Origin: an uncultured Bdellovibrionales bacterium
GTDB taxonomy: Bacteria; Patescibacteriota; Minisyncoccia; Moranbacterales; UBA1568
Reading direction: 5' to 3'
Length of the DNA: 64,000 bases
Assembly: GCA_964420045.1 (NCBI GenBank)
Contig: CAYQPQ010000002.1
Span: 2,979-66,978 of the forward strand
The translations under genes were made by a program, and so were the position numbers. Under the pieces are notes generated by a model. The model was not told where the DNA came from. It did not search any database and saw only the letters and a list, made by a program, of their open reading frames with translations. Below, piece after piece: positions 1,298 to 30,509 of this stretch; position 1 is the stretch's first letter; every line of letters begins with the position of its first letter.

Positions 1298-3073
1298 ATG
1301 AAATACGTCATCTACGCGAGAAAATCTACCGAAAGCGAAGACCGACAAACGCTCTCGATTCAGTCGCAGATTATCGAAATGCAAGAGATTGCAAAACGCG
1401 AGAATCTCGATATTGTGAAATTGTTTCAGGAATCGAAATCAGCAAAAGCGCCGGGGCGTCCGGTGTTTTCCGAGATGATCGAGTTTATCAAAAAGGGCAA
1501 AGCGGACGGAATACTTTGTTGGAAAATCGATCGTCTCGCAAGAAATCCACTTGATGAAGGGCTGATCAAATGGATGCTTCAAAAGAGCGAGATCAAACAA
1601 ATCAAAACATCCGAACGCGATTACAATCCGGAAGACAATGTGGTCATTGCGAGCATCGAGTTTTCCATGGCGAATCAGTACATCCGAGACTTGAGCCGAA
1701 ACGTGAAACGCGGACAAGCGGAGAAAGTGCGGCGAGGAGAATATCCGAGCTCCCCTCCCCTCGGGTACACGGGCGATCCCAAAACGAAGCGATTGATTAT
1801 CGTCGAGAAAGAAGCGAGGTGTATCAGAAAAGCATTTGCTCTCTACGCGGCAAAAAGTCATTCGATCATTTCGATTACCGAAGAGTTACAAAAAGAAGGG
1901 CTTCGAACTCGTCGAGGAAGGATCATCTACAAGTCCACGCTCCATCGTATCCTCACCAATCCCATCTACTGCGGAATGTTTGAGTGGAACGGACAAACCC
2001 ACGCAGGAACGCACGAGCCGATTGTTTCGAAGAAACTCTTTGACGAAGTGCAACACATACTCTCCCCGGCGCAGTTTGTCCGACGGACGGAATCATGGAA
2101 GTACACCTACCGCGGACTCATGATGTGCGGCGAGTGCGGACTTAAAGTAACCGCGGAAAAGCAGAAGGGTCATGTCTACTACCGATGCACCAAAACATTC
2201 GGGACACACCGCTGTTCGCAACCGTACCTGCGCGAAGAAAAACTCATTGAACTTATCGGCGAAGAGTTGAAAAGAATTCAGTTTGATGAAGAGATTCTCG
2301 ATCTTGTGGTGGATGCGTCCAAAGAGAAGTACGCTTCCATGGGAGCAGACACCGCCGAGCAAGAAAAGACACTCCTTGCCGCTCTCAAAGAAAATCAAAG
2401 TCGGAAGGATTCGCTTGTGGAAAAGTTTATCGACAATGCACTTCCAAAAGACATCTACGATCGAAAGTTCTCCGAGCTCTCGGAAGAAGAAGCGGGCATC
2501 AGGGAACAACTTCAAGATATGCAAACACAGGACGGGAAGGTTATTGAGAACATTGAGACAGCGGTACAGTTCATCAAGACCGCGCATGACCTCTTCAATC
2601 GAGGCGACGAAACCGTCAAAAGAGAGGTCGCCTTTCTCGTATCTTCGAACCTGGGGTTAAAGGACCGAAAGATCGCGTATTTCAACCTCAATGACCCCTT
2701 CTCGTGGCTCGTCGAAGACGCGTCGTCCCTTCTTCCTCAAAACACAACCCTCGAACCGGCGTTTGTGCGCTTCCCAAAAGGAAAAGCAGTCTCTCATGAG
2801 ACTGCTCGTTCTGTTCTGCGGAGAGGCAGGGATTCGAACCCTGGAAGGGGTTTCCCCCTTAACACATTAGCAGTGTGCTGCTTTCAGCCGCTCAGCCACC
2901 TCTCCAAGTTCTCACAAATTTTCAATGAGCTACGCGCCAAGCAGACTGTAACTCCCCCAAAACAGCTTCATTGCTCGAAGTACCGAGGGACACGCATAGA
3001 AAGAGTGTATCACTGCCAAACACCCTCTGGCAAGACAAGAAACACGCGACCAGTTCGAGCAAATAGACTTTGA
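1298..3073 (+). CDS. Large serine recombinase (resolvase/invertase catalytic domain, recombinase domain, zinc ribbon, coiled coil). The ORF track's frame starts at a TTG at 1292; the first ATG is 1298. There is no in-frame stop until 3073, so the C-terminal ~90 aa read antisense through tRNA-Ser and are probably not functional
   Basis: The N-terminus VIYARKSTESEDRQTLSIQSQ is the hallmark serine-recombinase catalytic motif, with the nucleophile Ser in YARKST. A Cys-rich segment CGECG...YYRC...HRC is followed by a long coiled coil, as in large serine integrases. The 3' end of the ORF overlaps the tRNA at 2819-2905 on the opposite strand. Confidence 0.8.
   Translation: MKYVIYARKSTESEDRQTLSIQSQIIEMQEIAKRENLDIVKLFQESKSAKAPGRPVFSEMIEFIKKGKADGILCWKIDRLARNPLDEGLIKWMLQKSEIKQIKTSERDYNPEDNVVIASIEFSMANQYIRDLSRNVKRGQAEKVRRGEYPSSPPLGYTGDPKTKRLIIVEKEARCIRKAFALYAAKSHSIISITEELQKEGLRTRRGRIIYKSTLHRILTNPIYCGMFEWNGQTHAGTHEPIVSKKLFDEVQHILSPAQFVRRTESWKYTYRGLMMCGECGLKVTAEKQKGHVYYRCTKTFGTHRCSQPYLREEKLIELIGEELKRIQFDEEILDLVVDASKEKYASMGADTAEQEKTLLAALKENQSRKDSLVEKFIDNALPKDIYDRKFSELSEEEAGIREQLQDMQTQDGKVIENIETAVQFIKTAHDLFNRGDETVKREVAFLVSSNLGLKDRKIAYFNLNDPFSWLVEDASSLLPQNTTLEPAFVRFPKGKAVSHETARSVLRRGRDSNPGRGFPLNTLAVCCFQPLSHLSKFSQIFNELRAKQTVTPPKQLHCSKYRGTRIERVYHCQTPSGKTRNTRPVRANRL
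2819..2905 (-). tRNA. tRNA-Ser (anticodon GCT), class II with a long variable arm
   Basis: The reverse complement reads GGAGAGGTGGCTGAGCGG...GCACA-CTGCTAA-TGTGT...GGGGGAAACCCC...CAGGGTTCGAATCCCTGCCTCTCCG. It has a 7-bp acceptor stem, a GTTCGAATC T-loop, an anticodon loop CTGCTAA and a long variable stem-loop. Confidence 0.88.
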
Positions 3074-6278: not shown

Positions 6279-6312
6279 AAAAAATTCTGTTAAACACTCG
6301 CGATCAAAAGAG

Positions 6313-6399
6313 CGGTGGGGGTGAGATTCGAACTCACGGTACCGTTTCCGGTACGGCAGTTTTCAAGACTGCTACCTTAAACCGCTCGGTCACCCCACC
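6313..6399 (-). tRNA. tRNA-Ser (anticodon TGA), class II
   Basis: The reverse complement reads GGTGGGGTGACCGAGCGGTTTAAGGTAGCAGT-CTTGAAA-ACTGC...GGAAACGG...GAGTTCGAATCTCACCCCCACCG. It has a long variable arm, a GTTCGAATC T-loop and anticodon TGA. Confidence 0.88.
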
Positions 6400-7198: not shown

Positions 7199-7271
7199 GC
7201 GCTCGTAGCTCAGTGGATAGAGCGTCTGGTTGCGGTCCAGAAGGTCGCAGGTTCGATTCCTGCCGAGCGCA
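7199..7271 (+). tRNA. tRNA, 73 nt, anticodon GCG (Arg); the isotype call is tentative
   Basis: The sequence is GCGCTCG-TA-GCTC-AGTGGATA-GAGC-G-TCTGG-TTGCGGT-CCAGA-AGGTC-GCAGG-TTCGATT-CCTGC-CGAGCGC-A, a canonical cloverleaf. Anticodon loop positions 34-36 are GCG. Confidence 0.8.
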
Positions 7272-7398
7272 CACTGACACAAAGTACAAGGATTTACACC
7301 TCTCCAAGAAAGATAAAAGACAGGCTCTTCGCCTGTCTTTACTATATTCATCGACAAAAACACGTGAAAGCTTCGCCATGCAGACGTCAAGACACTTC

Positions 7399-7962
7399 CT
7401 ACGCGCCACTCCAAAAGCTCATCATGATGCCGAGATCGCGAGTGTTCACCACATTGTCCGTATTCACATCCGCCGAAAGTCCCGATCCTGTCTGAAGCCA
7501 CTGCGCAACCAGTGCGGTAAAGTCAGCGAGTGAATATGTTTTTGTCTGTGTATTCGTCTCAACACTCGTCGACTTCGCCGACTCGCCAAACCCGCTATAT
7601 GCCGAGACCGCATACACATAGGTTCCCGATGAAAGCCCGGTGTCGGAATAGGTTGTTGTTGTCGCATTGGTTGTTCCAATTTGCACAGTCGGAGTACAGC
7701 CAGCACCACCGCACCGATATACATTATACCCGGCGAGCCACCCGTCCGAAACCGCATCCCACGACAAATTGATCTGTGTTGTCGAGGGAGACGAAGCGAC
7801 AAGATTTGCCGGCGTCGGCGGCGCACCCGCAGGAGGCGGAGGCGGAGGCGGAAGTGCTGCAAATGCCGCCGGCACAAACAGCACCGCAATCGAGAGAAAG
7901 CCGAGAATTGCTCCCGTAAGCATCCGGTTTTCTTTTGCAAAGATGCCTAATTTTTGTTTCAT
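7399..7962 (-). CDS. Secreted or anchored protein with a proline-rich linker, an FN3-like domain and a C-terminal dockerin-like calcium-binding repeat
   Basis: An N-terminal hydrophobic segment is followed by PPPPPPPAGAPPTP and then ...NLSWDAVSDGWLAGYNVYR, which is FN3-like. The C-terminal ADVNTDNVVNTRDLGIMMSFW fits the dockerin pattern D-x-N-x-D-x-x-V-N-x-x-D-L. Confidence 0.6.
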   Translation of the reverse strand: MKQKLGIFAKENRMLTGAILGFLSIAVLFVPAAFAALPPPPPPPAGAPPTPANLVASSPSTTQINLSWDAVSDGWLAGYNVYRCGGAGCTPTVQIGTTNATTTTYSDTGLSSGTYVYAVSAYSGFGESAKSTSVETNTQTKTYSLADFTALVAQWLQTGSGLSADVNTDNVVNTRDLGIMMSFWSGA

Positions 7963-8016
7963 AGAATTCTACGCTGCATGGATTAAATCACATTCCTCAC
8001 TTTTCAAAGACTCAAC

Positions 8017-9888
8017 CTATCGAACGCGAATGAGAATCGTCTTTGAGGTGCTATTGCCAACATCATCATATACCTTGAGCTGGAACACATGGAGACCCGT
8101 CGGCGTATTCGCCGGAATATTGAACGATTTGCTCTTCGTAGTCTTCCAATACCCAAGGAACTGATAGCGGTAACGATCTATGTCTTCGTTATCCTGTGCA
8201 TCCCACCACACTTTTTCGCCACGCGACTTCGTGAGAAACCGAGGAAGATCGGTGATTTCGGGATCCTTGTCATCCACAAAGACATTGTAGGAAGCGGATT
8301 TGTCCACCTCGTTTCCATTTGCATCGATATAGCGCACCGCATATCGAGACGTGCCGTTTTCCTTCTCGGTTACCTTGATCGACCAATTTCCATCGCCATC
8401 CACCTTCGTACTATCCTTCAACTTTCCCTCTCGATAAATCTCAACCTTTCCGTTCTTAATGTCCGCATCCGATCCCTTAAACGAAAGCTTCGAATCATCC
8501 GTCATGAAATCATCGCGTTTTCCGAATTTCGTCTTTTCTCCGATAACCTTGATAGGATCTCTCGAGAATTCTCCTTTCCGATCCGAAGCGCCCGCAGCGC
8601 ACGACCGTTCGGTATCCGGGTTACCACCTGCGCATCCGGCAGGGCTTCCTTCGGCATCACGAGTCTGCACCCCGCCAAGACATCTCCCCCATTCGCCATA
8701 TGTAAAGCTCGAACAGGTTGTGACAGGAGGTTCATACGCACAGCTCTGACTCGACGAAGGTGGCGTACCACCGGAGCACCCGGCTGGAACTCCTGTTACT
8801 GCTCGCGTCTGCGTATTATCAACCTGGCAAGCGCCCCAGTCAGATGTATTGAAATTCGTGCAGGTCGTACTTCCACCGGTATAGGTACAGCTCTGTGTCG
8901 ACGCCGGCGGATTTCCACCAGTACACCCCACAGGAATACCCGTCACCGTCTGCGTCTGCGTGCCATCCGGTTGACATGCGCCCCAGCCAGATTCTGTGAA
9001 ACTTGTGCACGTCGGCGGCGTGTAGGCACACGATTGTGTCGTCTCCGGTACAGCGCCACCGGAACACACATCGGGAATCGTCGAGACAACCGTCTGTGTC
9101 TGCGTGCCATCCGGTTGACATGCGCCCCAGCCCGAATAGACATAGCCGGTACACGCCGGCGCACCCACGAGCGCCCGAATACCGGAAACGCTCGACAGCA
9201 AATCATTAGCGGATCCTCCCTCTTCAATAACGTCCGAATCGGTCTCGTTGTCCTGACCGATAAAGGTATATCGAATATTGTTTGTCGTCGAAGAGACCGA
9301 GCGAAGCGCTTTAAACGTCAGCGTTGCCACAAGACCCGAATTGTTTCGAACTCCCGGCGACGGCTTGGCAAGTGTCAAAGAAATCGTACCCCCCGCAGTA
9401 TCGTTATCCACAATCTGACATGGATTCCCTTGATACACACAGCTGTTGTCAACGCCGAATATGGAATTGCTCGTATCCCATCCCGTCAGTTGAAAATCCG
9501 CAGGATCATACGTCACCAAAGCACGCGTCGCAACAACGTCCATACCGCCCGTATCAACCACCAGATCCACGGAAAACGTATCGTCTTGAGCGACATTAAT
9601 CGTGGTTCCATCTCCGGTTGCGTCCGGCGATGTCATCGATAATGTTGCCGTTCCACTTGCTTTGGACAAACTCTCGATTTCCAGCGACACACTCCACACA
9701 AACGATACGAACGCGCCGGATATAAAAGCGAGCATAAAGAGCCCTTGCCAGGTCTTTACGCGCGTTCGCGACACAAACACCCACGACTTCCCCAAAAACG
9801 GCAGAGTATCTCCCGCAAGGTTGTCAATATGCCGATTTATAGTCCCCCCCGTTTGAAGAGGATCTTTCTTTTGTTTTTCTTCCGCCAT
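8017..9888 (-). CDS. Membrane-anchored surface protein with an N-terminal cohesin-like domain, four tandem Cys-rich repeats of about 38 aa and a C-terminal Ig-like region
   Basis: A transmembrane helix GLFMLAFISGAFVSFVWSV is followed by TINVAQDDTFSVDLVVDTGGMDVVATRALVTYDPADFQL...GLVATLTFKAL, a pattern like type I cohesin. A repeat of the form C..F..S.WGACQPDGTQTQTV.G.P.GC.GG.PP...QSC.Y occurs four times; the matching nucleotide direct repeats lie at about 8745-9200. Confidence 0.6.
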   Translation of the reverse strand: MAEEKQKKDPLQTGGTINRHIDNLAGDTLPFLGKSWVFVSRTRVKTWQGLFMLAFISGAFVSFVWSVSLEIESLSKASGTATLSMTSPDATGDGTTINVAQDDTFSVDLVVDTGGMDVVATRALVTYDPADFQLTGWDTSNSIFGVDNSCVYQGNPCQIVDNDTAGGTISLTLAKPSPGVRNNSGLVATLTFKALRSVSSTTNNIRYTFIGQDNETDSDVIEEGGSANDLLSSVSGIRALVGAPACTGYVYSGWGACQPDGTQTQTVVSTIPDVCSGGAVPETTQSCAYTPPTCTSFTESGWGACQPDGTQTQTVTGIPVGCTGGNPPASTQSCTYTGGSTTCTNFNTSDWGACQVDNTQTRAVTGVPAGCSGGTPPSSSQSCAYEPPVTTCSSFTYGEWGRCLGGVQTRDAEGSPAGCAGGNPDTERSCAAGASDRKGEFSRDPIKVIGEKTKFGKRDDFMTDDSKLSFKGSDADIKNGKVEIYREGKLKDSTKVDGDGNWSIKVTEKENGTSRYAVRYIDANGNEVDKSASYNVFVDDKDPEITDLPRFLTKSRGEKVWWDAQDNEDIDRYRYQFLGYWKTTKSKSFNIPANTPTGLHVFQLKVYDDVGNSTSKTILIRVR

Positions 9889-9942: not shown

Positions 9943-10419
9943 TCACAAGCTTCCTTCCGAGAAATCAAACGACTTGAGCACATCGGCAATAGCCACAATC
10001 CCCACCATATGATCAGTACTGTCCACCACCGGAAACACGCTCAGTCCCGTTTCTTTGAATTTTCCGACCAACTCTCGAAGAGGCATGTTTTCGGAAACCG
10101 TCTGACAGGGAACACTCATAATATCTTTCGCTTTTGCCTGCATCAACCGATCCACCATCTCCCGACGACTGCCACTCATCTCACTCGCAACACGCATTTT
10201 CCGCATGAAGTCTATATACGAAGGCAAGTAGATATTCGACGAATCCTTCGTAAAAAAGTCTGTCTCCGTAATGATACCGGATATTTTCCCGGCATCCAAA
10301 ACGGGAACACCGTGAATCCGATGTTCCGTGAGAAGCGACGCCACTCTTTGCAACGGCTCTTCCAGTCCAACGGAAATGACCGACACGGTCATGATATCCT
10401 TCACAACAGAATTATTCAT
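9943..10419 (-). CDS. CBS-domain pair protein
   Basis: Two CBS motifs are present: VKDIMTVSVISVGLEEPLQRVASLLTEHRIHGVPVLD and AKDIMSVPCQTVSENMPLRELVGKFKETGLSVFPVVD. Confidence 0.75.
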   Translation of the reverse strand: MNNSVVKDIMTVSVISVGLEEPLQRVASLLTEHRIHGVPVLDAGKISGIITETDFFTKDSSNIYLPSYIDFMRKMRVASEMSGSRREMVDRLMQAKAKDIMSVPCQTVSENMPLRELVGKFKETGLSVFPVVDSTDHMVGIVAIADVLKSFDFSEGSL

Positions 10420-10582
10420 ACTCTGTCTACAGAAAAAGAATAGAGACGCTCTTCTCCGAAAAAGCACTTTCAGTATAAATCATTCTTCTCATATCCGCAA
10501 AAAGGAACAATGTCATTCCTGTCAACATGCAGAGCACACCGCTCCTCTTTACAAGAAATCGGAAAAAGACTCTTATGAAAGT

Positions 10583-21324: not shown

Positions 21325-23631
21325 TCACTCATAGCGAAGCGCATTCAGTGCTGATATTTTCGTCGCACGGCGCGCCGGATAGAGCCCCGTCAAAACACCG
21401 ACAGCCAGAGAGAAAATAAGAATGGTAACCACGAAAAGATTCGGGATATATGCGACATCAAGAACACCGAGATTCTTATCGCGAAGAAAGGCAACGGTAG
21501 AAATCAATATGCCAATCGCCTTGCCCGCCAAAAATCCCAAGAAAAGCCCCAGCACCCCGCCAAAGAACGACATAACCATAGACTCCGTAAGAAACAACTC
21601 CTGCACTTCGAACGCTTTCATGCCCATCGCTTTCATAAGTCCGACTTCGCGCGTTCGTTCGAGGAGCGACACTGTGAGCGTATTGAACATACCGAGTGCG
21701 GCAACGCCAAGTGCTGCCATACCGAGAAGCGCTAGCACAATTCTTGCCGTTCCGAAAAAATTATTGATCTGCTCCACCGTATCGGCAACGGACGTGGTCA
21801 CATATCCCATGCCTTCGACTTGCCGACGAACATTCGCGAGCGATTCCTGCGTCGCAACCGTCAATTTCACCTGAGAATAATTTGTAACGCCGAGCGTTCG
21901 CACATCAATAAAGGGAACATAAAATACCGGTGTTTTATCATCGGGAATAACTCCGATAATCGAATACTCCGATTCAACAGACTCGACCTTCTGCGCCTTG
22001 CCTCCAAGGAGCGAACCGGTTATCACAAAAGAAACACTAAACTTCTTGCCAACAGCTTCCGATTCGGAAAGCGAGAGCACGCGAAGCATTGCGCGATTTA
22101 CCACCGCTTCGCGCTTCGCCGCGTCCCCAAGAGCCGCTCGCTCCACCGATTTATCAGTTCCGGCCGCATCACCAAGGTCAAGTTCCACCCACTCGCCATC
22201 CGATGCGGACACCTTGATATTGTTCACCGTGGTCGATGCATCGGGAGAGGATTCGGCAGCTGCTGCACCCTCTGATGAGACTGCCTCCGTACTCTCACCA
22301 AGCACAAGACCGGCAGCGTCGGTCATCTCTTGATCGGCAACATATACCGGAGTGATCGAAACTTCGTCATCTACAAGAGCGAAATATCCCTGCTCCACCC
22401 GAACAGATCCATTCGAATCTTTGAGAGGTGAAAAATCATCCGCACAAGCATCGGAATCATTGCAGTCGGAAGACTGCTTCCAGAGAGGCGCTTCCAGAGA
22501 AATCCACTTCCCCAGCACCTCTCCCTGCGCGCCGCGGTATGCCTCTCCAGAATCCAGAACCGTACTCCCATAGGGTTTTCCGGCAACAATATCACCCTTC
22601 ACGGGAATACGAGCAATGCGAACATATCCGAGCAGCCGCGATTTCGGATCGGGCGATTCCCGCAATCTTGCCCACACCGTCGAAGACGCCTGGATCGAAA
22701 TCGGTTCGAGAATATCGCCGAAGCCATCGGGAGAAGGCGGGGCGGAATCAGAGACTCCCGCTACGGTTTTCACCGTCGGAAGATTCGCCGAAAGATCATT
22801 GCTTTCGAAAATCACTCCTGAAGACGGCCGAATTGCCGACTGGCGCAAATAATCGGAAGTGACCGCATAAACCGCCATGTCCGATACCGATCCTTGGTAG
22901 TTCACCTTGCCAACCACGGCAACGAGCGGCGCAACGGATTCGACATTTGGAATCTCTCGCATATTCGCAAGCGTCTCATCATTAATCTTCACTTTGCCAC
23001 CGGCTTGAGGAGACACATCCATCTGTCGCATCTCCTCAAGTCTCGCCACCTGAGAAATAACCAGCCGCTGCACGCCATACCCGAGCGACACGAGAAACAC
23101 AATCGAAGCGATGCCCAATGCCATGCCGCCTATGGTAATCGCCGTTCGCGTTTTCTTCACTTTCATATTCCGAACCGCAATGCCGATAAGGCTGATTCGA
23201 TCAATGGATTTTCGCCGCTCGATACGAAATAATTTTTCGATTTTGCTGTAGAGTGCGGCAAACATTTCTTCGCTTGACCGCGGAGACGGATGGCGCAGCA
23301 CTTTCCGAACACGTCCATATACCGAAAACACCCCGCGCGCCACAATATAGAAAAGCAGAAGCACGACAAAGAGCACGAGCCGAAGGAAAGTACTCTTAAA
23401 AAATTCCGGAATCCCGACAATCGAGCGCCACAAACGCACAAAAAACGACGCGCGATAAATCGGCACAGCAGATTCGAGAACGGCAACACCGTGCGCGGCG
23501 GCATCTTGCACGTCACGAACGGGTTTCTTTTTTCCAAAAAAAGGAAATTGCATACAACAAAAAGAATGAATTCTAAGAACCTGCTGAAAAAACTTCAAAC
23601 CAATAAAGAGTTGACCGAGCTTTTTCAACAA
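21325..23631 (-). CDS. ABC transporter permease, FtsX/MacB family with a large periplasmic domain
   Basis: An N-terminal transmembrane helix and a long periplasmic region precede the C-terminal FtsX four-helix module ...LLERTREVGLMKAMGMKAFEVQELFLTESMVMSFFGGVLGLFLGF... The true start is probably internal to this ORF. Confidence 0.7.
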   Translation of the reverse strand: MLKKLGQLFIGLKFFQQVLRIHSFCCMQFPFFGKKKPVRDVQDAAAHGVAVLESAVPIYRASFFVRLWRSIVGIPEFFKSTFLRLVLFVVLLLFYIVARGVFSVYGRVRKVLRHPSPRSSEEMFAALYSKIEKLFRIERRKSIDRISLIGIAVRNMKVKKTRTAITIGGMALGIASIVFLVSLGYGVQRLVISQVARLEEMRQMDVSPQAGGKVKINDETLANMREIPNVESVAPLVAVVGKVNYQGSVSDMAVYAVTSDYLRQSAIRPSSGVIFESNDLSANLPTVKTVAGVSDSAPPSPDGFGDILEPISIQASSTVWARLRESPDPKSRLLGYVRIARIPVKGDIVAGKPYGSTVLDSGEAYRGAQGEVLGKWISLEAPLWKQSSDCNDSDACADDFSPLKDSNGSVRVEQGYFALVDDEVSITPVYVADQEMTDAAGLVLGESTEAVSSEGAAAAESSPDASTTVNNIKVSASDGEWVELDLGDAAGTDKSVERAALGDAAKREAVVNRAMLRVLSLSESEAVGKKFSVSFVITGSLLGGKAQKVESVESEYSIIGVIPDDKTPVFYVPFIDVRTLGVTNYSQVKLTVATQESLANVRRQVEGMGYVTTSVADTVEQINNFFGTARIVLALLGMAALGVAALGMFNTLTVSLLERTREVGLMKAMGMKAFEVQELFLTESMVMSFFGGVLGLFLGFLAGKAIGILISTVAFLRDKNLGVLDVAYIPNLFVVTILIFSLAVGVLTGLYPARRATKISALNALRYE

Positions 23632-23634
23632 ACC

Positions 23635-24555
23635 CTAAGCAGTTTCTGGCACCGAAGGTTGAGAAGCAGACTTCCCACTCGACCCTCCATACGAAAATAC
23701 CTCTGGTTCGGCATTCGGATCCTCTTCAAGACCGGCACCCTGTTGAATACTCACACCGCGTTTGTATTTCAATTCTTTCTCCAGATTCGCTTTTTCCTCA
23801 CCGCGATAAATACCAAGAAGATGCCCGTCTCGCATGGAAAGCGCTGTTTTTGCATACGCAAGATACTCAAGATCGTGCGTCACCATAATGAGCGTTTTCC
23901 CGTTCTCATTGAGTGACCGAAGAAGTTTTAAGAGCATCTCGCCGGCATCATAATCCAGGTTGCCGGTCGGTTCATCCGCAATGATAACTTCCGGATCGGT
24001 GATAAGCGCTCGAGCAACCGCGATACGCTGCTGCTGTCCGCTCGAGAGATCCATCGGGTGATAATCCGCCCAATCGACAAGCTCCACCGAGCGAAGCGCC
24101 TCGCGCGCGCGTTCAAACGCCGTCAGCCGATCCCAGCCAAGCAAGAACAATGGAAAGGCGATATTCTCCAGAACGCTCAGTGACTTCACCCAATTCGACT
24201 GCTGATACACCATACCGATATGCTTTTTGCGAAACTCCGATCGAACATCCTCTTCCACTCCCGGACCATACAGGTTTTCTCCGAGAAACGTCATACTTCC
24301 TTTTGATGGTCCCTCCAGCCCGAGAATAATATGGAGCAGCGTCGACTTCCCACATCCGGACGGCCCGAACACGATCAAGAAATCAGATCGCTCTACGGTA
24401 AAACTAATGCCTTTCAAGACATCGATAATCTGCGTTCCGACATGAAACGATTTATGTACGTCGGTCACCGCAATAACCGGTTCGCCCGCCTGAGGAGTCG
24501 ATTCGTACCCTCCGGCAAATGGCTGTTTTGAAATGGGAGTGATAGTTTCCGACAT
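23635..24555 (-). CDS. ABC transporter ATP-binding protein (MacB/LolD-like)
   Basis: Walker A is GPSGCGKST, the signature is LSGGQQQRIAVARAL and Walker B is IIADEPTGNLD. Confidence 0.88.
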   Translation of the reverse strand: MSETITPISKQPFAGGYESTPQAGEPVIAVTDVHKSFHVGTQIIDVLKGISFTVERSDFLIVFGPSGCGKSTLLHIILGLEGPSKGSMTFLGENLYGPGVEEDVRSEFRKKHIGMVYQQSNWVKSLSVLENIAFPLFLLGWDRLTAFERAREALRSVELVDWADYHPMDLSSGQQQRIAVARALITDPEVIIADEPTGNLDYDAGEMLLKLLRSLNENGKTLIMVTHDLEYLAYAKTALSMRDGHLLGIYRGEEKANLEKELKYKRGVSIQQGAGLEEDPNAEPEVFSYGGSSGKSASQPSVPETA

Positions 24556-24563
24556 ATCAGCGT

Positions 24564-27500
24564 TTACTGGCCAAAGATGGATTTAAGACTCGAAAACACA
24601 ATATCGAGCGCATTCTCGGTCGCTTTCGGCGCAATGGAGACAATATCAATCGATTCTCCGACATTCCCCGCCTTGTCTTTCGAAAGCACACGAAGATGAT
24701 ACACCTTCGACGGCGTTAATTTCGAGATCACCACCGTGTGATTCGATACCAACGAAGCGTCCTCTTGCGTCTTCTGCGGATAGACCGACCCCGTCCCCTC
24801 GCCATACTCCACCTGCGAAGTTGCCGACTCATCCGTTGTCCATGTAATCACCAATTGCGCCTCCGCCTCGCCCTGACTCCCGTCGGACGACTTCACGATA
24901 AGCCCCTCGACATTCGCATCAATGATTTGCGGAGCGCGCGTGTCGGTTGCCGTCGTGAACTGCAAGGCGTCGGATTTCGCTTCATTGCCAAAATTGTCTC
25001 TCCCTCGCACCACCAGCGAATAAGATGTTTGAGGCAGAAGATCCCGAAGCAATATGCGGTGTTCTCCCGCTACCATCTTCGCATCCACCTCATCCTTCGC
25101 ATCGCCCGCATTTCCCTCGGGGACATATGTGACAATGGAAGACGTTTCCGTATTGGTCTTCCATGAAATCAAAAGTACGGTCTGCGCCGTTCCCTTTACC
25201 TGCTGAATACGCACTTCTTCAATCTTTGGTCGCGGCAACGTTTCAAAGGAAAGCGTATTTCCTTCATATTCCTCTTCTTCACTATCAACGGTATTGATCT
25301 TGTAATAATATTTCGTGCCATCAAGCAGATCTTCGAGACTGGTCGTATAGGTTGTCTCGGACGTCGAGGTGGATATCTCCTTCACCAAACCAAACGCCTC
25401 CGTAAGTCCGTAGTATATTTTCACTTTGCTCGCCCCTCTTGCCGTAAATTCCAAAATAGCACTCGAAAGACCCGCGCTTTTCAAATTCGGATCGATAACC
25501 GTCGGAGCAGGATCAGTCTTAAACGACTTCTCACCCGAGAGTCCGGTATTACCGTCTTCGTCCGTCCAGCGCGCACGGTAGTGATAGGTTGTCCCCGGAG
25601 AAAGATTCGAGAGCTTGATCTCATGATCCGTCACCTGTTCGGAATTACTTGGTTCCTCGGAATAATAGTCTCCGGAACCCTTCCCATATTGCACCTTGCT
25701 GTCAGACGCCCGATCGGTCGACCACCCAATAGTCGCACTCTTGGTGGTAATGAGTGAAACCGACGGACCGGAAGCGAGCCCCGCCGCCTCGGTGTATTTC
25801 CCGGTCGGATACGCCGAAACAATTTCACTGAATGCGCCGCAGTTATTAACACTGTCACACGCGCGAATCTTATAGTAGTGCAGCGCCTGCGTCAGTCCCG
25901 TGTCCACAAAGGCGATACCGCTCGTCGAGGCAACTTTCGTATACGTCCCGCTCTCACTCAACGAGTGATAGATCTGATAGGAATCGACACCGGAACCGAT
26001 ATCCGCCGGCGCCTCCCATGACACCGCCAGCTTCCATGACTCGGTATTTTTCACTGACACATCCGCGATATCGGTATTCAGCGGAATGCCCGGCGCGCTT
26101 GTATCAGCGACAAACTCAACCGTTTCGTAGGCTCCATAATTTATAACGCCGCCCAAATCCTCCGGATTCTTCGCAACAACATAAAACGTGTTCGTGCCCT
26201 TTTGCGTCGCAAACGCCGATGCTGCAACCGACTCCACTCCGGAAGCGGTAAACGTGCAGGCATCTTCCGACGGCACAGCATTTACCGTATAGCAGTACGT
26301 GAGATCACTCGCATCTCCCGAAAAACTAAACGGCGGATCCCACGTGAACGCGAAAGAGTTCGCGGTGTTTGTTGCCGGTATCGCTTGGACATTTTGCGGC
26401 GCCGTCGGTCCGGCTCCTGCATAGTAAAACGAGGTACGCACATTGCTCGCGCTGACATTTCCCGCCACATCAATCGTACGCAAATAAAAGAAATTCTCTC
26501 CCGTCTGGTAGGCAGCGTCGGCGATATCAACTTGGAGAGCCGTCGTCGTTGACGACCAACCATCGCTCGCAACCGTCGCTGCAATTTGATACTGATATCC
26601 GGCAATCATCGAGTTCGTCGACGGATTGCCGTTTCCGTCCGTTCCCGCGCTCCACAAGAACGAAAAGTCATTGTCAGGAGAGTACACAGCTGGCGCTGCG
26701 GTTACACCAAGCGGATTCGTCGGAGCCGTCGAGTCGAGCCAATAGGAAAACGCCACAGGAAATGTCACACTTGTATTCTGTGCGACATCTTTCGCTTTCA
26801 CGATAAGATAGTATTTCTGTCCGCTTACCAAGGCATTCCCATCCGTATCGACAGTGGCTGTATAGCTGTTTCCTGCTTGGAAATCCCCCTGCGTTGTCGG
26901 CTCAGCACTCGCCGATGTGCCGAAATATACATAGTACCCCGCAACGCCCGACCCGCCGGTATCGGCTGCAGCGGACCACTCGAAATAGGGTGCTGAATAG
27001 GAATACCACGTACCCGTTGTCAAATCGGTTAATCCACCGCTTGCATTCTTGGCAGCGAGTGTCGGCGTACCGGACCATGTTGGCGCCGCAAGATCCGCTG
27101 TCGCTGTCAACGTAACCGAGTTGAGTCGAACTAACTCATTGCCATTCCCAAGAAGCACCGCTTGCCACAACAATCCGCCCGACCCTGCGGGAAATGTCGG
27201 GATATTCGTCGATATCGTCGAGGCGTCATTCGACTGCGCATATCCAGACGATGTTGCCCATGCGGAACCACTCCAATATTGCCATGTCGATCCGCCATCG
27301 CTCGAGAGGCGGTATGCGATATTTCCCGGCGCATCCTCATCCGCAACAAATGAGTCCCACTTCTTCACGCCGGAGGTGTGAACCGCCGAAGCGAGCGTCA
27401 CGGTTTCGTATCCGTTCGAATACGGAGTCGACTGAAACGACGTTCGCGCAACAGAACTGATTCGAAGCTCATCGAGAGAACCCTGAAAGAACCCTTCCGG

Positions 27501-30500
27501 TTTTCCGTATTCGCGACCGGCATATGTTGTCCCGATAAGAATATCGCTCGACGAATCCGCAATCGACATCGAAATAGAGCGCGAATTATTCAGCGTACCG
27601 TCAATATACACACTCATCGTGGAGCCATTATACGTTGCGGCGACATGGTGCCAATTTGTATTAAAAGAACTCGTTGAAGACTGCAAGAAAGCATTGTTGC
27701 CAAACGACCAAACAGCCGCATCGGCATTCGCTGTATTTCCGGTGCCAGCATAAAACTTTCCTTTGTAGGCACTGAACGCGCCGACTTCTTCAATCGTCGA
27801 CCCCCAACTTCCGTTCACGTTGTCACCACCGGCTTGCGCCCACAACGATCCAGCATATCGCCACACCTCTCCGTCTCCGGCTGTCGTGCCCAGTCCCGCA
27901 TAGAGCGCTCCGTTATAAACAGCGAGCGTTCGAACCCGCTCATAGGTTCCGCTTGACCAACTTCCACCAATATCGTCGCCTCCGATAAGCGTCCACGACG
28001 AGCCATCATATTTCCACACTTCCGCATCATCGGTCGATGTGCCAAGCCCCACATACAAAAACCCGGCGTACACAATCATACTGTCCACTTGTTCATAGGT
28101 ACTGTTCGCCCAGCTCGAATTGATACCGTCCCCACCGACACGACTCCACGATGGAGTACCGTCACAATTGGCACACTCCCACACCTCGGCGTCGCCGGCG
28201 CTCGACCCCAAGCCGGCATAGAGCTTCCCAGCATGCACCCCGAGCGTTGTCACTCGTTCAAAATTCGTCGTCCAGCCGGAATACAGACTGTCGCCGCCAA
28301 CCTTAGTCCACGTTGAACCATTCCATCGCCATACTTCCGCGTCATTCGCGCTATTGCCCAAACCGGCGTAGAGGAATCCGCCGTATGACGCCAAAGAATT
28401 TACCTCTTCAAAGCCCGTTGTCCAGCCGGAATTGAGACTGTCTCCGCCGATTTGTTCCCATGTCGAGCCGTTCCAATGCCACACTTCCGCATCATTCGAA
28501 CTCGACCCCAAGCCGGCATACAATTCTCCTCCGTGCCCGATAAGACTCGTCACCGTTTCATAGGTATTCGCATCCCAACTCCCATTTACACCCTGACCAC
28601 CGATAATGGTCCATGTCGTCCCATCAAACTGCCACACCATAGCATTGCCGATAGTGGCGACGCCCGTTCCCGCATACAAATAGTCACCCGTCACGTTTAA
28701 AACCTCAACACTTCGGAGCCCACGAAATCCCCAGCTGAAATTCACATAATCACCTCCGATAAGCGTCCATGACGATCCGTTCCACGCCCATTCCTGTGCC
28801 GAAACCGTCGAACTCGAAGTACTCACACCGGCATAGAGCGTCGATCCGGACACGGCAAGGGTACTTACAATAGTGTGTGTATTCGTAAAACTCCCATTCA
28901 CGCCGTCGCCGCCGATTTTAGTCCAGGTTGATCCGTCAAAACTCCATACCTCATTGTCTCCGGCCGTTGAGCCAAGACCGGCATAGAGTGTTGTCCCGTC
29001 ATTCACGATGGAGTACACCATTTCATAGCTCGAACTGTCCCAGCTTGAATTTACGGTGTCGCCGCCGATCTTGCTCCATGTCGAGCCGTTCCATTTCCAT
29101 ACTTCTGCGTCGCCTGCCGTCGAGCCGAGACCAACATAGAGATTCCCGCCAAAATAGGTCATCGAGTAGACATATTCGAACGTCGTATCCCAACTTGAGT
29201 TCAGACTGTCGCCGCCGATCTTGCTCCATGTCGAGCCGTTCCATTTCCAGACTTCGGAATCCCCGGCTGTCAAACCCAGCCCGGCATACACGTTCGTACC
29301 GTCATTCACCAAGCTATATACGCCTTCGTAATTTGTCGTCCAGCCGGAATTCAAACTATCACCGCCGATCTTGCTCCATGTCGAGCCGTTCCATTTCCAC
29401 ACTTCGGCATCATTCGCGCCCGTCCCGAGACCAGCGTAGAGCTCCCCGCCAACAAACGTCAGCGCATTCACCGCCTCAAACGTATTAATCTGCCAGCTTG
29501 AATTGAGCGCATCGCCGCCGATCTTGCTCCATGTCGAGCCGTTCCACTTCCACACCTCGGCATCGCCCGTTCCACTTCCCAGTCCGACATAGAGATTCGT
29601 GCCGTCATTCGCCATGACATACACCGCCTCAAACGTATTGATTGCCCAGCAATTGTTCAGTCCGTCTCCGCCGATCTGCGTCCATCTCGTTCCGTTCCAT
29701 TTCCACACTTCGGCGTCGCCCGTTCCGTTTCCCGTCCCGACATAGAGATTCCCATCGAGAACATTCGACGATTCGATAGTCGGATTTCCGTTCAAATCCC
29801 AACTTCCGTTAATATCGTTCCCCGCCTGCTGCGTCCATCCGGATGCCGAATCATTCGCCAGCTCATAGGTGAGCTTGCCCGTCTCATTGTCGTAGTACAA
29901 CTGATAGTCGCCCTTATCGACAATACCCTGCCGTTGAGAATGGCTTCCCGCCGAAAAAGCCGAGGAAAATTTCGTCCACGCTTCAATCGTATTCGCCTGG
30001 GACAAAGAATTTGCCGTCGAATCCGGAACCGACGCAAAAGCTGTCGTTCCGTTGAGCGAGAGCGCATTGTTTAGATTCCCCGAAACAAAGCTTCCTCCCG
30101 ATACCGTCGCGTGATTCGCATTCGACGAACTATCATTGGCCGTCGACCCGCTCGATTCGTCGAAATGATAGAGTGCTACCGTATCGCTATCGTCCGCATA
30201 GTTCTTCACCGAAAGCCGCGATTCCGTATTCGAACTATCGAGAGTCACTCCACTCGAAGCAACATAGTCACTCGGCGTTGCAAAATTCCATGCTTCACCA
30301 ATCTCCCCGTCAGCGAAAATACTGTGGATCCGACCCGAAAAGAACAGAAACGCGCCCGCCGCCACACAAGCGGACAAGACAGATAGACCGATGTATCTCG
30401 GCTTCAGACTCCAAAAAATTCGAGCTATCCGAAGCAGGAATCGCCCAAAGAAAACTCCGATCGATATGAGGAGTCGATAGAAATGGTTGTGTTTTTGCAT

Positions 30501-30509
30501 AATACCCAA
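24564..30509 (-). CDS. Giant surface protein of 1981 aa. It has an N-terminal membrane anchor, two LamG/ConA-like lectin domains, about 14 tandem beta-propeller-type repeats with the motif YAGLGS.AGDAEVWKWNGSTWSKIGGD, and C-terminal FN3/Ig-like domains
   Basis: The N-terminal transmembrane segment is LSACVAAGAFLFFSG. Repeats of about 50 aa are clear in the translation, and near-identical units of about 150 nt are visible at about 28900-29720, for example ccgccgatcttgctccatgtcgagccgttccatttcca four times. LamG-like segments are ...ALYHFDESSGSTANDSS... and ...NWHHVAATYNGSTMSVYIDGT...LDELRIS. Confidence 0.8.
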   Translation of the reverse strand: MGIMQKHNHFYRLLISIGVFFGRFLLRIARIFWSLKPRYIGLSVLSACVAAGAFLFFSGRIHSIFADGEIGEAWNFATPSDYVASSGVTLDSSNTESRLSVKNYADDSDTVALYHFDESSGSTANDSSSNANHATVSGGSFVSGNLNNALSLNGTTAFASVPDSTANSLSQANTIEAWTKFSSAFSAGSHSQRQGIVDKGDYQLYYDNETGKLTYELANDSASGWTQQAGNDINGSWDLNGNPTIESSNVLDGNLYVGTGNGTGDAEVWKWNGTRWTQIGGDGLNNCWAINTFEAVYVMANDGTNLYVGLGSGTGDAEVWKWNGSTWSKIGGDALNSSWQINTFEAVNALTFVGGELYAGLGTGANDAEVWKWNGSTWSKIGGDSLNSGWTTNYEGVYSLVNDGTNVYAGLGLTAGDSEVWKWNGSTWSKIGGDSLNSSWDTTFEYVYSMTYFGGNLYVGLGSTAGDAEVWKWNGSTWSKIGGDTVNSSWDSSSYEMVYSIVNDGTTLYAGLGSTAGDNEVWSFDGSTWTKIGGDGVNGSFTNTHTIVSTLAVSGSTLYAGVSTSSSTVSAQEWAWNGSSWTLIGGDYVNFSWGFRGLRSVEVLNVTGDYLYAGTGVATIGNAMVWQFDGTTWTIIGGQGVNGSWDANTYETVTSLIGHGGELYAGLGSSSNDAEVWHWNGSTWEQIGGDSLNSGWTTGFEEVNSLASYGGFLYAGLGNSANDAEVWRWNGSTWTKVGGDSLYSGWTTNFERVTTLGVHAGKLYAGLGSSAGDAEVWECANCDGTPSWSRVGGDGINSSWANSTYEQVDSMIVYAGFLYVGLGTSTDDAEVWKYDGSSWTLIGGDDIGGSWSSGTYERVRTLAVYNGALYAGLGTTAGDGEVWRYAGSLWAQAGGDNVNGSWGSTIEEVGAFSAYKGKFYAGTGNTANADAAVWSFGNNAFLQSSTSSFNTNWHHVAATYNGSTMSVYIDGTLNNSRSISMSIADSSSDILIGTTYAGREYGKPEGFFQGSLDELRISSVARTSFQSTPYSNGYETVTLASAVHTSGVKKWDSFVADEDAPGNIAYRLSSDGGSTWQYWSGSAWATSSGYAQSNDASTISTNIPTFPAGSGGLLWQAVLLGNGNELVRLNSVTLTATADLAAPTWSGTPTLAAKNASGGLTDLTTGTWYSYSAPYFEWSAAADTGGSGVAGYYVYFGTSASAEPTTQGDFQAGNSYTATVDTDGNALVSGQKYYLIVKAKDVAQNTSVTFPVAFSYWLDSTAPTNPLGVTAAPAVYSPDNDFSFLWSAGTDGNGNPSTNSMIAGYQYQIAATVASDGWSSTTTALQVDIADAAYQTGENFFYLRTIDVAGNVSASNVRTSFYYAGAGPTAPQNVQAIPATNTANSFAFTWDPPFSFSGDASDLTYCYTVNAVPSEDACTFTASGVESVAASAFATQKGTNTFYVVAKNPEDLGGVINYGAYETVEFVADTSAPGIPLNTDIADVSVKNTESWKLAVSWEAPADIGSGVDSYQIYHSLSESGTYTKVASTSGIAFVDTGLTQALHYYKIRACDSVNNCGAFSEIVSAYPTGKYTEAAGLASGPSVSLITTKSATIGWSTDRASDSKVQYGKGSGDYYSEEPSNSEQVTDHEIKLSNLSPGTTYHYRARWTDEDGNTGLSGEKSFKTDPAPTVIDPNLKSAGLSSAILEFTARGASKVKIYYGLTEAFGLVKEISTSTSETTYTTSLEDLLDGTKYYYKINTVDSEEEEYEGNTLSFETLPRPKIEEVRIQQVKGTAQTVLLISWKTNTETSSIVTYVPEGNAGDAKDEVDAKMVAGEHRILLRDLLPQTSYSLVVRGRDNFGNEAKSDALQFTTATDTRAPQIIDANVEGLIVKSSDGSQGEAEAQLVITWTTDESATSQVEYGEGTGSVYPQKTQEDASLVSNHTVVISKLTPSKVYHLRVLSKDKAGNVGESIDIVSIAPKATENALDIVFSSLKSIFGQ

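Follow-up and report, generated by a model that had tools for sequence, protein, structure and literature searches.

Within a 64,000-nucleotide stretch of contig CAYQPQ010000002.1 (GenBank assembly GCA_964420045.1), here called the window, two adjacent genes encode a 623-aa protein with a cohesin domain, named the anchor, and a 187-aa protein with a signal peptide, a fibronectin type III (FN3) domain and a C-terminal dockerin-like module, named the cargo. It is likely that the two proteins form a non-cellulosomal cohesin-dockerin docking pair which keeps the secreted FN3 protein on the cell surface; we infer the binding, and the main evidence for a cohesin-module partnership is the linkage of the two genes, which is conserved in the genomes of relatives. 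The adjacent open reading frames (ORFs) of a preliminary description of this DNA were found as claimed. The 623-aa protein contains the quoted peptides FSVDLVVDTGGMDVVATRALVTYDPADFQL and LVATLTFKAL, and residues 165-177 of the 187-aa protein (nucleotides 7470-7432) read DVNTDNVVNTRDL. The features of both genes are as follows.

8017-9888, minus strand: anchor gene, an ORF of 623 aa with an ATG start, which encodes a tail, a transmembrane (TM) helix, the cohesin, four Cys repeats, a Big_13 domain and a C-terminal beta-sandwich.
9751-9888, minus strand: conserved, predicted cytoplasmic N-terminal tail, residues 1-46, with eight Lys/Arg (sequence and N-terminal hidden Markov model, HMM).
9676-9750, minus strand: single TM helix, residues 47-71, a predicted N-in/C-out signal anchor (Kyte-Doolittle).
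9160-9663, minus strand: cohesin domain, residues 76-243 (Pfam PF00963, AlphaFold2 (AF2), Foldseek and family profile).
8581-9159, minus strand: four tandem Cys repeats of about 47 aa each, residues 244-436 (family alignment).
8272-8523, minus strand: Big_13 Ig-like domain, residues 456-539 (Pfam PF19077, 31.8 bits versus 27).
8017-8271, minus strand: C-terminal beta-sandwich-like domain, residues 540-623, and stop codon (weak DUF4625 similarity).
7399-7962, minus strand: cargo gene, an ORF of 187 aa with an ATG start, which encodes a signal peptide, a poly-Pro linker, an FN3 domain and the C-terminal dockerin-like module.
7855-7962, minus strand: signal peptide, residues 1-36, closing with VPAAFAA (N-terminal hydrophobic segment that ends AFA-A).
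7816-7854, minus strand: LPPPPPPPAGAPP after the signal peptide, read from the sequence.
7555-7815, minus strand: FN3 domain, residues 50-136 (Pfam fn3, 28.2 bits versus a cut-off of 25).
7402-7551, minus strand: dockerin-like module, residues 138-187 (second repeat of Pfam Dockerin_1, profiles and hhalign).

Both genes are on the same strand and are separated by 54 nt. In the loci of relatives (labelled L001-L039; P0032, P0063, P0201, P0207, P0241 and P0283 designate individual proteins), each of the 16 anchor loci examined has a gene for the module or for a dockerin no more than about two genes from the anchor gene, which backs the functional pairing of the two genes put forward in the preliminary description, and the number of such genes ranges from one to at least nine per anchor locus. 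A scan of species-representative genomes for the module gave 31 loci, mostly from metagenome-assembled genomes (MAGs) labelled Moraniibacteriota or Parcubacteria group, and several labelled otherwise. The close relatives L001, L002/L003/L006 and L007 show the same order as the window: a gene for a protein with a pair of CBS domains, the anchor gene and an FN3-module gene. In many of the 31 loci, HMM mapping puts the anchor gene immediately beside module genes: L024 contains the anchor and four module genes, and L008 the anchor and two; in L020, L028 and L014 the anchor is preceded by four, two and one module genes, respectively, and L019 shows a gene for a protein with both cohesin and module, the CBS gene and the anchor, in that order. 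L023/L030 (LBQD01000001.1, Candidatus Moranbacteria GW2011_GWE2_35_2) shows the anchor and, directly after it, at least nine consecutive module genes. The same adjacency was found in a search begun from divergent anchor homologues, in which it is not built in: in all four loci a module or dockerin gene is no more than one or two genes away from the anchor. Furthermore, in L004, where the same one-loop module has another carrier (P0032, a cohesin adaptor of 229 aa), its gene again adjoins an orthologue of the anchor gene.

The module genes of L023/L030 encode proteins of 440-670 aa, several of them beta-helix or DUF5123-like, and many show a small Cys-rich motif, ETCSDxIQNQDETGxDCGGxCxxC, just ahead of the module.

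On profile and predicted-fold evidence, the membrane-proximal beta-sandwich of the anchor is a cohesin. Pfam Cohesin (PF00963) matches residues 98-209 with 26.6 bits versus a gathering score of 24.1 (E 7.9e-6), a small margin. The AF2 model of the domain, built with 23 homologues, is all-beta, with a predicted local distance difference test score (pLDDT) of 91.9 and a predicted template modelling score (pTM) of 0.88, and in a Foldseek search of this model against PDB the best 41 matches are without exception cohesins, with types I, II and III represented (E 8.2e-9 to 6e-5; TM-scores 0.5-0.73), including archaeal and Clostridium perfringens non-cellulosomal cohesins. The best six matches of the cohesin family profile against PDB sequences are also all cohesins; a single-sequence phmmer search of the whole 623-aa protein against PDB sequences gave no match, so the profile of the cohesin region was needed. 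The cohesin-like beta-sandwich of the preliminary description is thus upheld, the matches being to cohesins rather than to another beta-sandwich family. The domain begins about five residues past the TM helix and has a nearly invariant pair of Cys residues (C150 and C157). There is one cohesin per anchor, and the window contains one cohesin and one module; the term scaffold, used in the preliminary description, is therefore overstated, since a protein with a single cohesin is an anchor rather than a scaffoldin.

Profile comparisons indicate that the module of the cargo is a dockerin homologue with a decayed first Ca site. A 12-residue degenerate first loop, TNTQTKTYSLAD, begins two residues upstream of the module, at 7557, and has Thr/Ser in place of the Asp/Asn ligands. 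It is followed by helix 1, DFTALVAQWLQT, in which DFTALVAQWL is retained from the first dockerin segment. After a linker comes the second segment, which is canonical, with an intact Ca-type loop, DVNTDNVVNTRD, at 7435-7470 and then helix 2, LGIMMSFW. The two halves also differ at loop positions 10-11, which are L-A in the first and a nearly invariant T-R in the second. The module alone scores 14.7 bits versus 22.9 against Pfam Dockerin_1 (PF00404; E 0.037), the match being to profile positions 29-52, that is, to the second repeat only, and it misses the cut-off because the first Ca loop is degenerate; of the two tandem dockerin segments of about 22 residues, each a 12-residue Ca-binding loop and a helix, the module has only the second intact. 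The family profile of the module, searched against PDB, gave 18 matches, all dockerins, and hhalign aligned it with two-repeat dockerins with 98.8% probability (E 8.5e-17) over 46 columns (query 12-57, template 9-55), which take in the end of loop 1 and, beyond it, both helices, the linker and loop 2. Furthermore, P0201 and P0207 are intermediates that show an intact first loop, DANCDGKIDITD, and then the same helix, linker, loop and helix; both clear the Pfam Dockerin_1 cut-off over almost the whole profile (within positions 1-53, and 2-53 for P0207). P0207 has 54% identity with the window module (E 1e-19). The dockerin-type repeat of the preliminary description thus stands as to homology, by the PDB profile matches, hhalign and the identity with P0207, and has to be qualified as to form, which is degenerate, single-looped and below the Dockerin_1 cut-off. 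Across the cargo family, conservation is highest in loop 2 and the helix that follows (0.88 versus 0.75 for FN3), where DVNTDNVVNTRDLGIMMSxW is almost invariant. No other dockerin-type loop was found in any of the six reading frames of the 64-kb window. For this segment we also considered, and rejected, a generic loop of the EF-hand or RTX type, since all PDB matches of the family profile are dockerins and Pfam EF-hand models are absent for the 187-aa protein.

An exhaustive search with the module profile in 1.84 billion cluster representatives gave 164 proteins at E<=1e-10; at the looser E<=1e-3 there are 2276, ordinary dockerins among them. The module is at the extreme C-terminus in 127 of the 148 best representatives, and 116 of the 148 show a single Ca loop; among 112 family representatives, 16 match Pfam Dockerin_1 with E<1e-3. 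The carriers include polysaccharide lyases, pectate-lyase-like beta-helices, a glycoside hydrolase family 5 (GH5) cellulase, and CBM9, F5/8-C and fn3 domains, and are of the types that typically carry dockerins; a cohesin domain is found on 21 of the 112. In L039 (12281-14554) the module is internal, at residues 631-676 in a chain that is at least 758 aa long, so the C-terminal placement is not absolute.

Two loci of relatives show proteins with more than one of these domains. L011 (7937-10135 of MAG_322, JBPOHW010000015.1) comes from a close relative, whose FN3-module protein is 71% identical to that of the window, and encodes a 733-aa chain with a TM helix, a cohesin of the anchor type (cohesin HMM E 9e-57), a run of FN3 domains (five by Pfam) and a C-terminal module; this protein could bind itself, its neighbours or the anchor. 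L004 (5481-11067 of Ga0438314_0000482, JGI 3300045117) contains three cohesins and three dockerins of two subtypes: a 631-aa protein with cohesin, Big_13 and a two-repeat dockerin, a 174-aa protein with FN3 and a two-repeat dockerin, P0032, the CBS protein and the anchor orthologue, encoded in that order and followed by four genes for Pel9A-like beta-helix proteins that have no dockerin. In L004 the two-repeat dockerins are of another subtype than the one-loop module. This layout suggests a hierarchical assembly and recalls the arrangement of anchoring scaffoldin, adaptor and cargo in complex cellulosomes.

Several observations weigh against a docking pair or lend it no backing. The window module is below the Pfam Dockerin_1 cut-off and has one canonical Ca loop only. 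The AF2 model of the isolated module has a low pLDDT (61.5), with helices 16-29 and 45-52 flanking the loop as expected, and a Foldseek search of this low-confidence model against PDB gave a lone, meaningless match (E 6.5); this outcome tells neither way. Furthermore, the cohesin is only a few residues from the membrane, and access to it might be restricted. About 20 of the 31 module-first loci show no anchor in the flanking DNA examined; module genes away from the anchor are expected if one anchor serves many cargo proteins, and they also leave room for other receptors. Finally, some loci carry other cohesins, those of adaptors, and the cognate cohesin may differ from that of the anchor. The last two points bear on an alternative in which both domains are genuine without being partners: the module would bind another cohesin or a cell-wall polymer, the anchor cohesin would bind another ligand, and the adjacency would reflect an island of co-regulated surface genes. 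Such a reading gains from the further cohesins on module-bearing proteins of relatives (P0032-type adaptors and the TM-cohesin-FN3 protein of L011) and from the many module genes with no anchor adjoining them in the DNA examined; however, the window has only one cohesin and one module, the anchor is adjacent in 16 of 16 loci whichever protein carries the module, and the cohesin of L011 is itself of the anchor type (E 9e-57). We regard it as improbable.

Still less probable, in our judgement, is that the module acts mainly as a tag for sorting or secretion, recognised by export or attachment machinery like the C-terminal domains of the type IX secretion system or other C-terminal sorting domains, rather than as a cohesin ligand. 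Its nearly constant place at the extreme C-terminus, the great diversity of its carriers and its almost invariant sequence would suit a tag; however, the module has clear homology to dockerins, which are known to bind cohesins, its carriers already possess Sec signal peptides at the N-terminus, the module of L039 is internal, and no secretion-system genes are conserved beside the anchor and cargo genes in the loci examined. A chance resemblance, in which two unrelated neighbouring genes encode a generic beta-sandwich and a protein with a generic loop of the EF-hand or RTX kind, is effectively refuted: the sub-threshold E-value of the window module with Dockerin_1 (0.037) and a Cohesin score only 2.5 bits over the cut-off would be compatible with it, but both domains have profile and fold evidence, the window protein matches no Pfam EF-hand model and the synteny is conserved across genera. 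A docking pair of anchor cohesin and cargo module is the reading that we retain.

The topology of the anchor is predicted from its N-terminal region. Kyte-Doolittle windows above 1.6 are confined to the TM segment, and the positive charges are N-terminal of it; since this one hydrophobic segment follows a tail rich in Lys/Arg, a type-II (N-in) membrane topology is predicted for the 623-aa protein, in agreement with the membrane anchoring given in the preliminary description. An HMM of residues 1-75 (tail and TM helix) recognises the anchors of distant relatives, across genera. The Pfam scan of the anchor protein shows no SLH domain, and its C-terminus, TILIRVR, is without a hydrophobic tail, which makes a sortase signal unlikely (no motif search was made). 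Attachment of the anchor is thus predicted to be through its N-terminal TM helix and to involve neither SLH domains nor a sortase. Its architecture is kept in homologues down to about 35-45% identity, and the number of Cys repeats alone varies. The C-terminal domain, conserved across the anchor family, matches Pfam DUF4625 below the cut-off (E 0.0045), and the only NCBIfam match of the 623-aa protein is a sub-threshold one to the Ca_tandemer repeat, in the Ig region.

Each Cys repeat of the anchor contains four Cys residues and follows the pattern C..F.YS.WG.CQ..GTQTR.V....P.GC.GG.P....Q.C.Y, with the consensus TCTxFxYSxWGxCQPxGTQTRTV...PAGCxGGxP...QSCxY and the invariant positions C3, W11, C14, P29, C32, G34, G35 and C44. 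The repeats show no match in Pfam (E<=10) or in a PDB profile search, and hundreds of unrelated proteins also contain them, among these some from Anaeromyxobacter that are named cytochrome c; they look like an undescribed family of extracellular disulfide-rich repeats. A TSP1- or midkine-like nature, proposed by the precomputed assignment of PF01091 to some distant matches, was rejected, as the Pfam and PDB profile searches give it no support.

The 187-aa cargo protein has a single hydrophobic segment, which is N-terminal, and its linker is PPPPPPP. The FN3-like domain of the preliminary description was confirmed, Pfam fn3 being above the cut-off. NCBIfam gave no match for this protein, and no catalytic domain was found in its Pfam scan.

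Two further features of the window belong to the surroundings of these genes.

9943-10467, minus strand: CBS-pair gene, an ORF of 174 aa whose likely start is an internal MNNSV (Pfam CBS, 90.2 bits, two stretches).
7316-7340, minus strand: terminator-like hairpin with a 10-bp stem and a T run, about 60 nt past the cargo stop codon (consensus scan).

The CBS-pair gene is directly upstream of the anchor gene, and its protein is presumed to be cytoplasmic, as it has no TM segment. An orthologue is directly upstream of the anchor in L001, L002, L004, L007, L014, L019, L024, L028, L037, L038 and L039, and in related loci it often abuts or overlaps the anchor gene. In L020 it is inside the cluster, with four cargo genes between it and the anchor, and it is absent at the P0063 locus only. 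The preliminary description was right in naming the anchor and cargo genes, and its two-gene picture missed this third conserved component. A consensus scan found no hairpin comparable to the strong one past the cargo gene in the 54-nt gap between anchor and cargo, which is consistent with one transcription unit, and from this arrangement the CBS, anchor and cargo genes are most likely co-transcribed. The conservation of the anchor tail and TM region suggests a possible action of the CBS protein on the cytoplasmic side of the anchor.

The explanation that we think likely for these data is a three-gene surface-display cassette formed by CBS, anchor and cargo. The 623-aa protein would insert into the membrane through its one N-terminal helix, with the tail inside the cell, and would present a membrane-proximal cohesin, with the Cys repeats and Ig-like domains projecting outward. 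The 187-aa protein would be exported through its Sec signal peptide, and its module would dock non-covalently on the anchor cohesin, so that the FN3 protein stays on the surface. The docking would probably require Ca2+ and take one orientation only, a single binding mode that we infer from there being just one intact repeat and from the difference between the two halves. In relatives, one anchor would serve from one to at least nine module-tagged cargo proteins, among them beta-helix, polysaccharide-lyase-like and GH5 proteins, binding modules and cohesin adaptors; given these larger cargo sets, the window would represent a minimal, one-cargo version. A more far-reaching proposal is that of an undescribed three-component cassette, found mostly in MAGs labelled Moraniibacteriota or Parcubacteria group, with other labels on a few records, and made up of a cytoplasmic, nucleotide-sensing CBS-pair protein, a type-II membrane cohesin anchor whose cytoplasmic tail is conserved, and exchangeable cargo that bears a one-loop dockerin tag, in which the CBS protein couples surface display or retention to the internal energy or nucleotide state; we hold it only tentatively and think it rather unlikely. 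If the cassette works as proposed, proteins with both cohesin and module (P0032-type and L011-type) could build head-to-tail chains outward from the membrane, and the cassette could be the means by which the ultra-small cell attaches to host cells or feeds on them.

The window is a plain chromosomal stretch with a GC content of about 51% throughout and with housekeeping genes such as those of RecG, BipA, an aminoacyl-tRNA synthetase, MscS and an L,D-transpeptidase. Homologues close to both the 623-aa and the 187-aa proteins carry the NCBI name Candidatus Moraniibacteriota, and the host is a bacterium belonging to the candidate phyla radiation (CPR; Patescibacteria), Candidatus Moraniibacteriota. 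The taxon labels of MAG records are quoted here as written, and some of them are Bdellovibrionales, Bacteroidales or Woesebacteria. The closest complete relative seen has a genome of 1.09 Mb, and that of the host is about 1 Mb. The window contains three tRNA genes: Ser-GCT (2818-2905, minus strand), Ser-TGA (6312-6399, minus strand) and Arg-GCG (7199-7272, plus strand), the last just past the terminator-like hairpin of the cargo gene and on the opposite strand. GC skew is negative in nearly all 2-kb bins (cumulative -4.9 across 64 kb) and the minus strand carries most of the long ORFs, which is consistent with a window within one replichore whose genes are co-oriented with replication. A 1981-aa ORF at 24564-30509 (minus strand) carries LamG, FN3 and Ig-like repeats and is directly upstream of an ABC ATPase gene (23635-24555, minus strand) and a MacB/FtsX-type permease gene (21325-23631, minus strand). 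It would seem to encode a giant surface protein served by a transporter of its own, and cohesin and dockerin are absent from it.

In the textbook account, cellulosomes assemble through cohesin-dockerin docking, which is also a much-used tool of protein engineering, and surveys report non-cellulosomal cohesin and dockerin modules across bacteria and archaea. To our knowledge, outside the cellulolytic Firmicutes these modules have been catalogued and rarely tied to a defined partner or purpose. CPR bacteria rely on contacts with the surface of their hosts, and their envelope proteins are largely unknown. A literature search (dockerin with CPR, Patescibacteria or Parcubacteria; noncellulosomal cohesin), of incomplete coverage, found no account of the cassette. 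The genes of the window would offer a naturally minimal pair of one cohesin and one dockerin in a CPR bacterium, with a partnership backed by gene linkage, that is, a simple surface-display module useful for understanding CPR biology, and a compact orthogonal cohesin-dockerin pair for synthetic biology. Among CPR bacteria, the epibiotic Saccharibacterium Southlakia epibionticum has a dockerin-domain protein and an FN3 protein among its essential envelope proteins, which its authors speculate to target host glycans (PMC10633639); the likeness to the cassette is one of context only.

The cellulosomal anchoring systems (SdbA/OlpB type II of C. thermocellum and ScaE of R. flavefaciens) share with the window a cell-bound cohesin and secreted proteins with C-terminal dockerins, and cellulosomal cohesin structures (5k39, 5m0y, 2b59/4fl4 and 2zf9) are among the matches to the window cohesin. 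Relatives of the window extend this likeness with cohesin-dockerin adaptors and carbohydrate-active cargo, and dockerins with a single binding mode are known in cellulosomal systems (PMC12484212). In contrast to cellulosomes, the window anchor has one cohesin and is not a multi-cohesin scaffoldin, its predicted attachment is by an N-terminal TM helix and not by SLH domains or a sortase, and the first Ca loop of the dockerin is degenerate. Furthermore, the window cargo is a bare FN3 protein without an enzyme, whereas lyase, beta-helix or GH5 cargo and single-cohesin adaptors are found in relatives; the host belongs to the CPR and has a genome of about 1 Mb, and a CBS-pair gene is linked in nearly every locus.

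Closer in kind are the non-cellulosomal modules of Archaeoglobus fulgidus (2xdh) and of the Clostridium perfringens glycoside hydrolases (2jh2/2vo8/2w1n), which likewise assemble extracellular proteins outside plant-cell-wall degradation and are found at ranks 23, 28, 33 and 40 of the Foldseek matches. Archaeal and bacterial modules of this type are usually scattered on soluble enzymes; here, however, there is a dedicated membrane anchor gene, a conserved putative operon partner and a dockerin subtype that ends in GIMMSxW. The two-repeat "DLGI(M/L)(M/L)SxW" dockerins of environmental bacteria (P0201, P0207, P0241, P0283 and others) share with the window family helix 1 (DFxxLVxxWL), loop 2 and helix 2, but keep an intact first Ca loop, DANCDGKIDITD, where the window family has TNTQTKTYSLAD. 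The kind of system is therefore not new, as such modules are known outside cellulosomes; what differs is the dockerin subtype with a decayed first Ca site, the single-cohesin anchor fixed by a predicted TM helix, the CBS partner gene and the CPR host.

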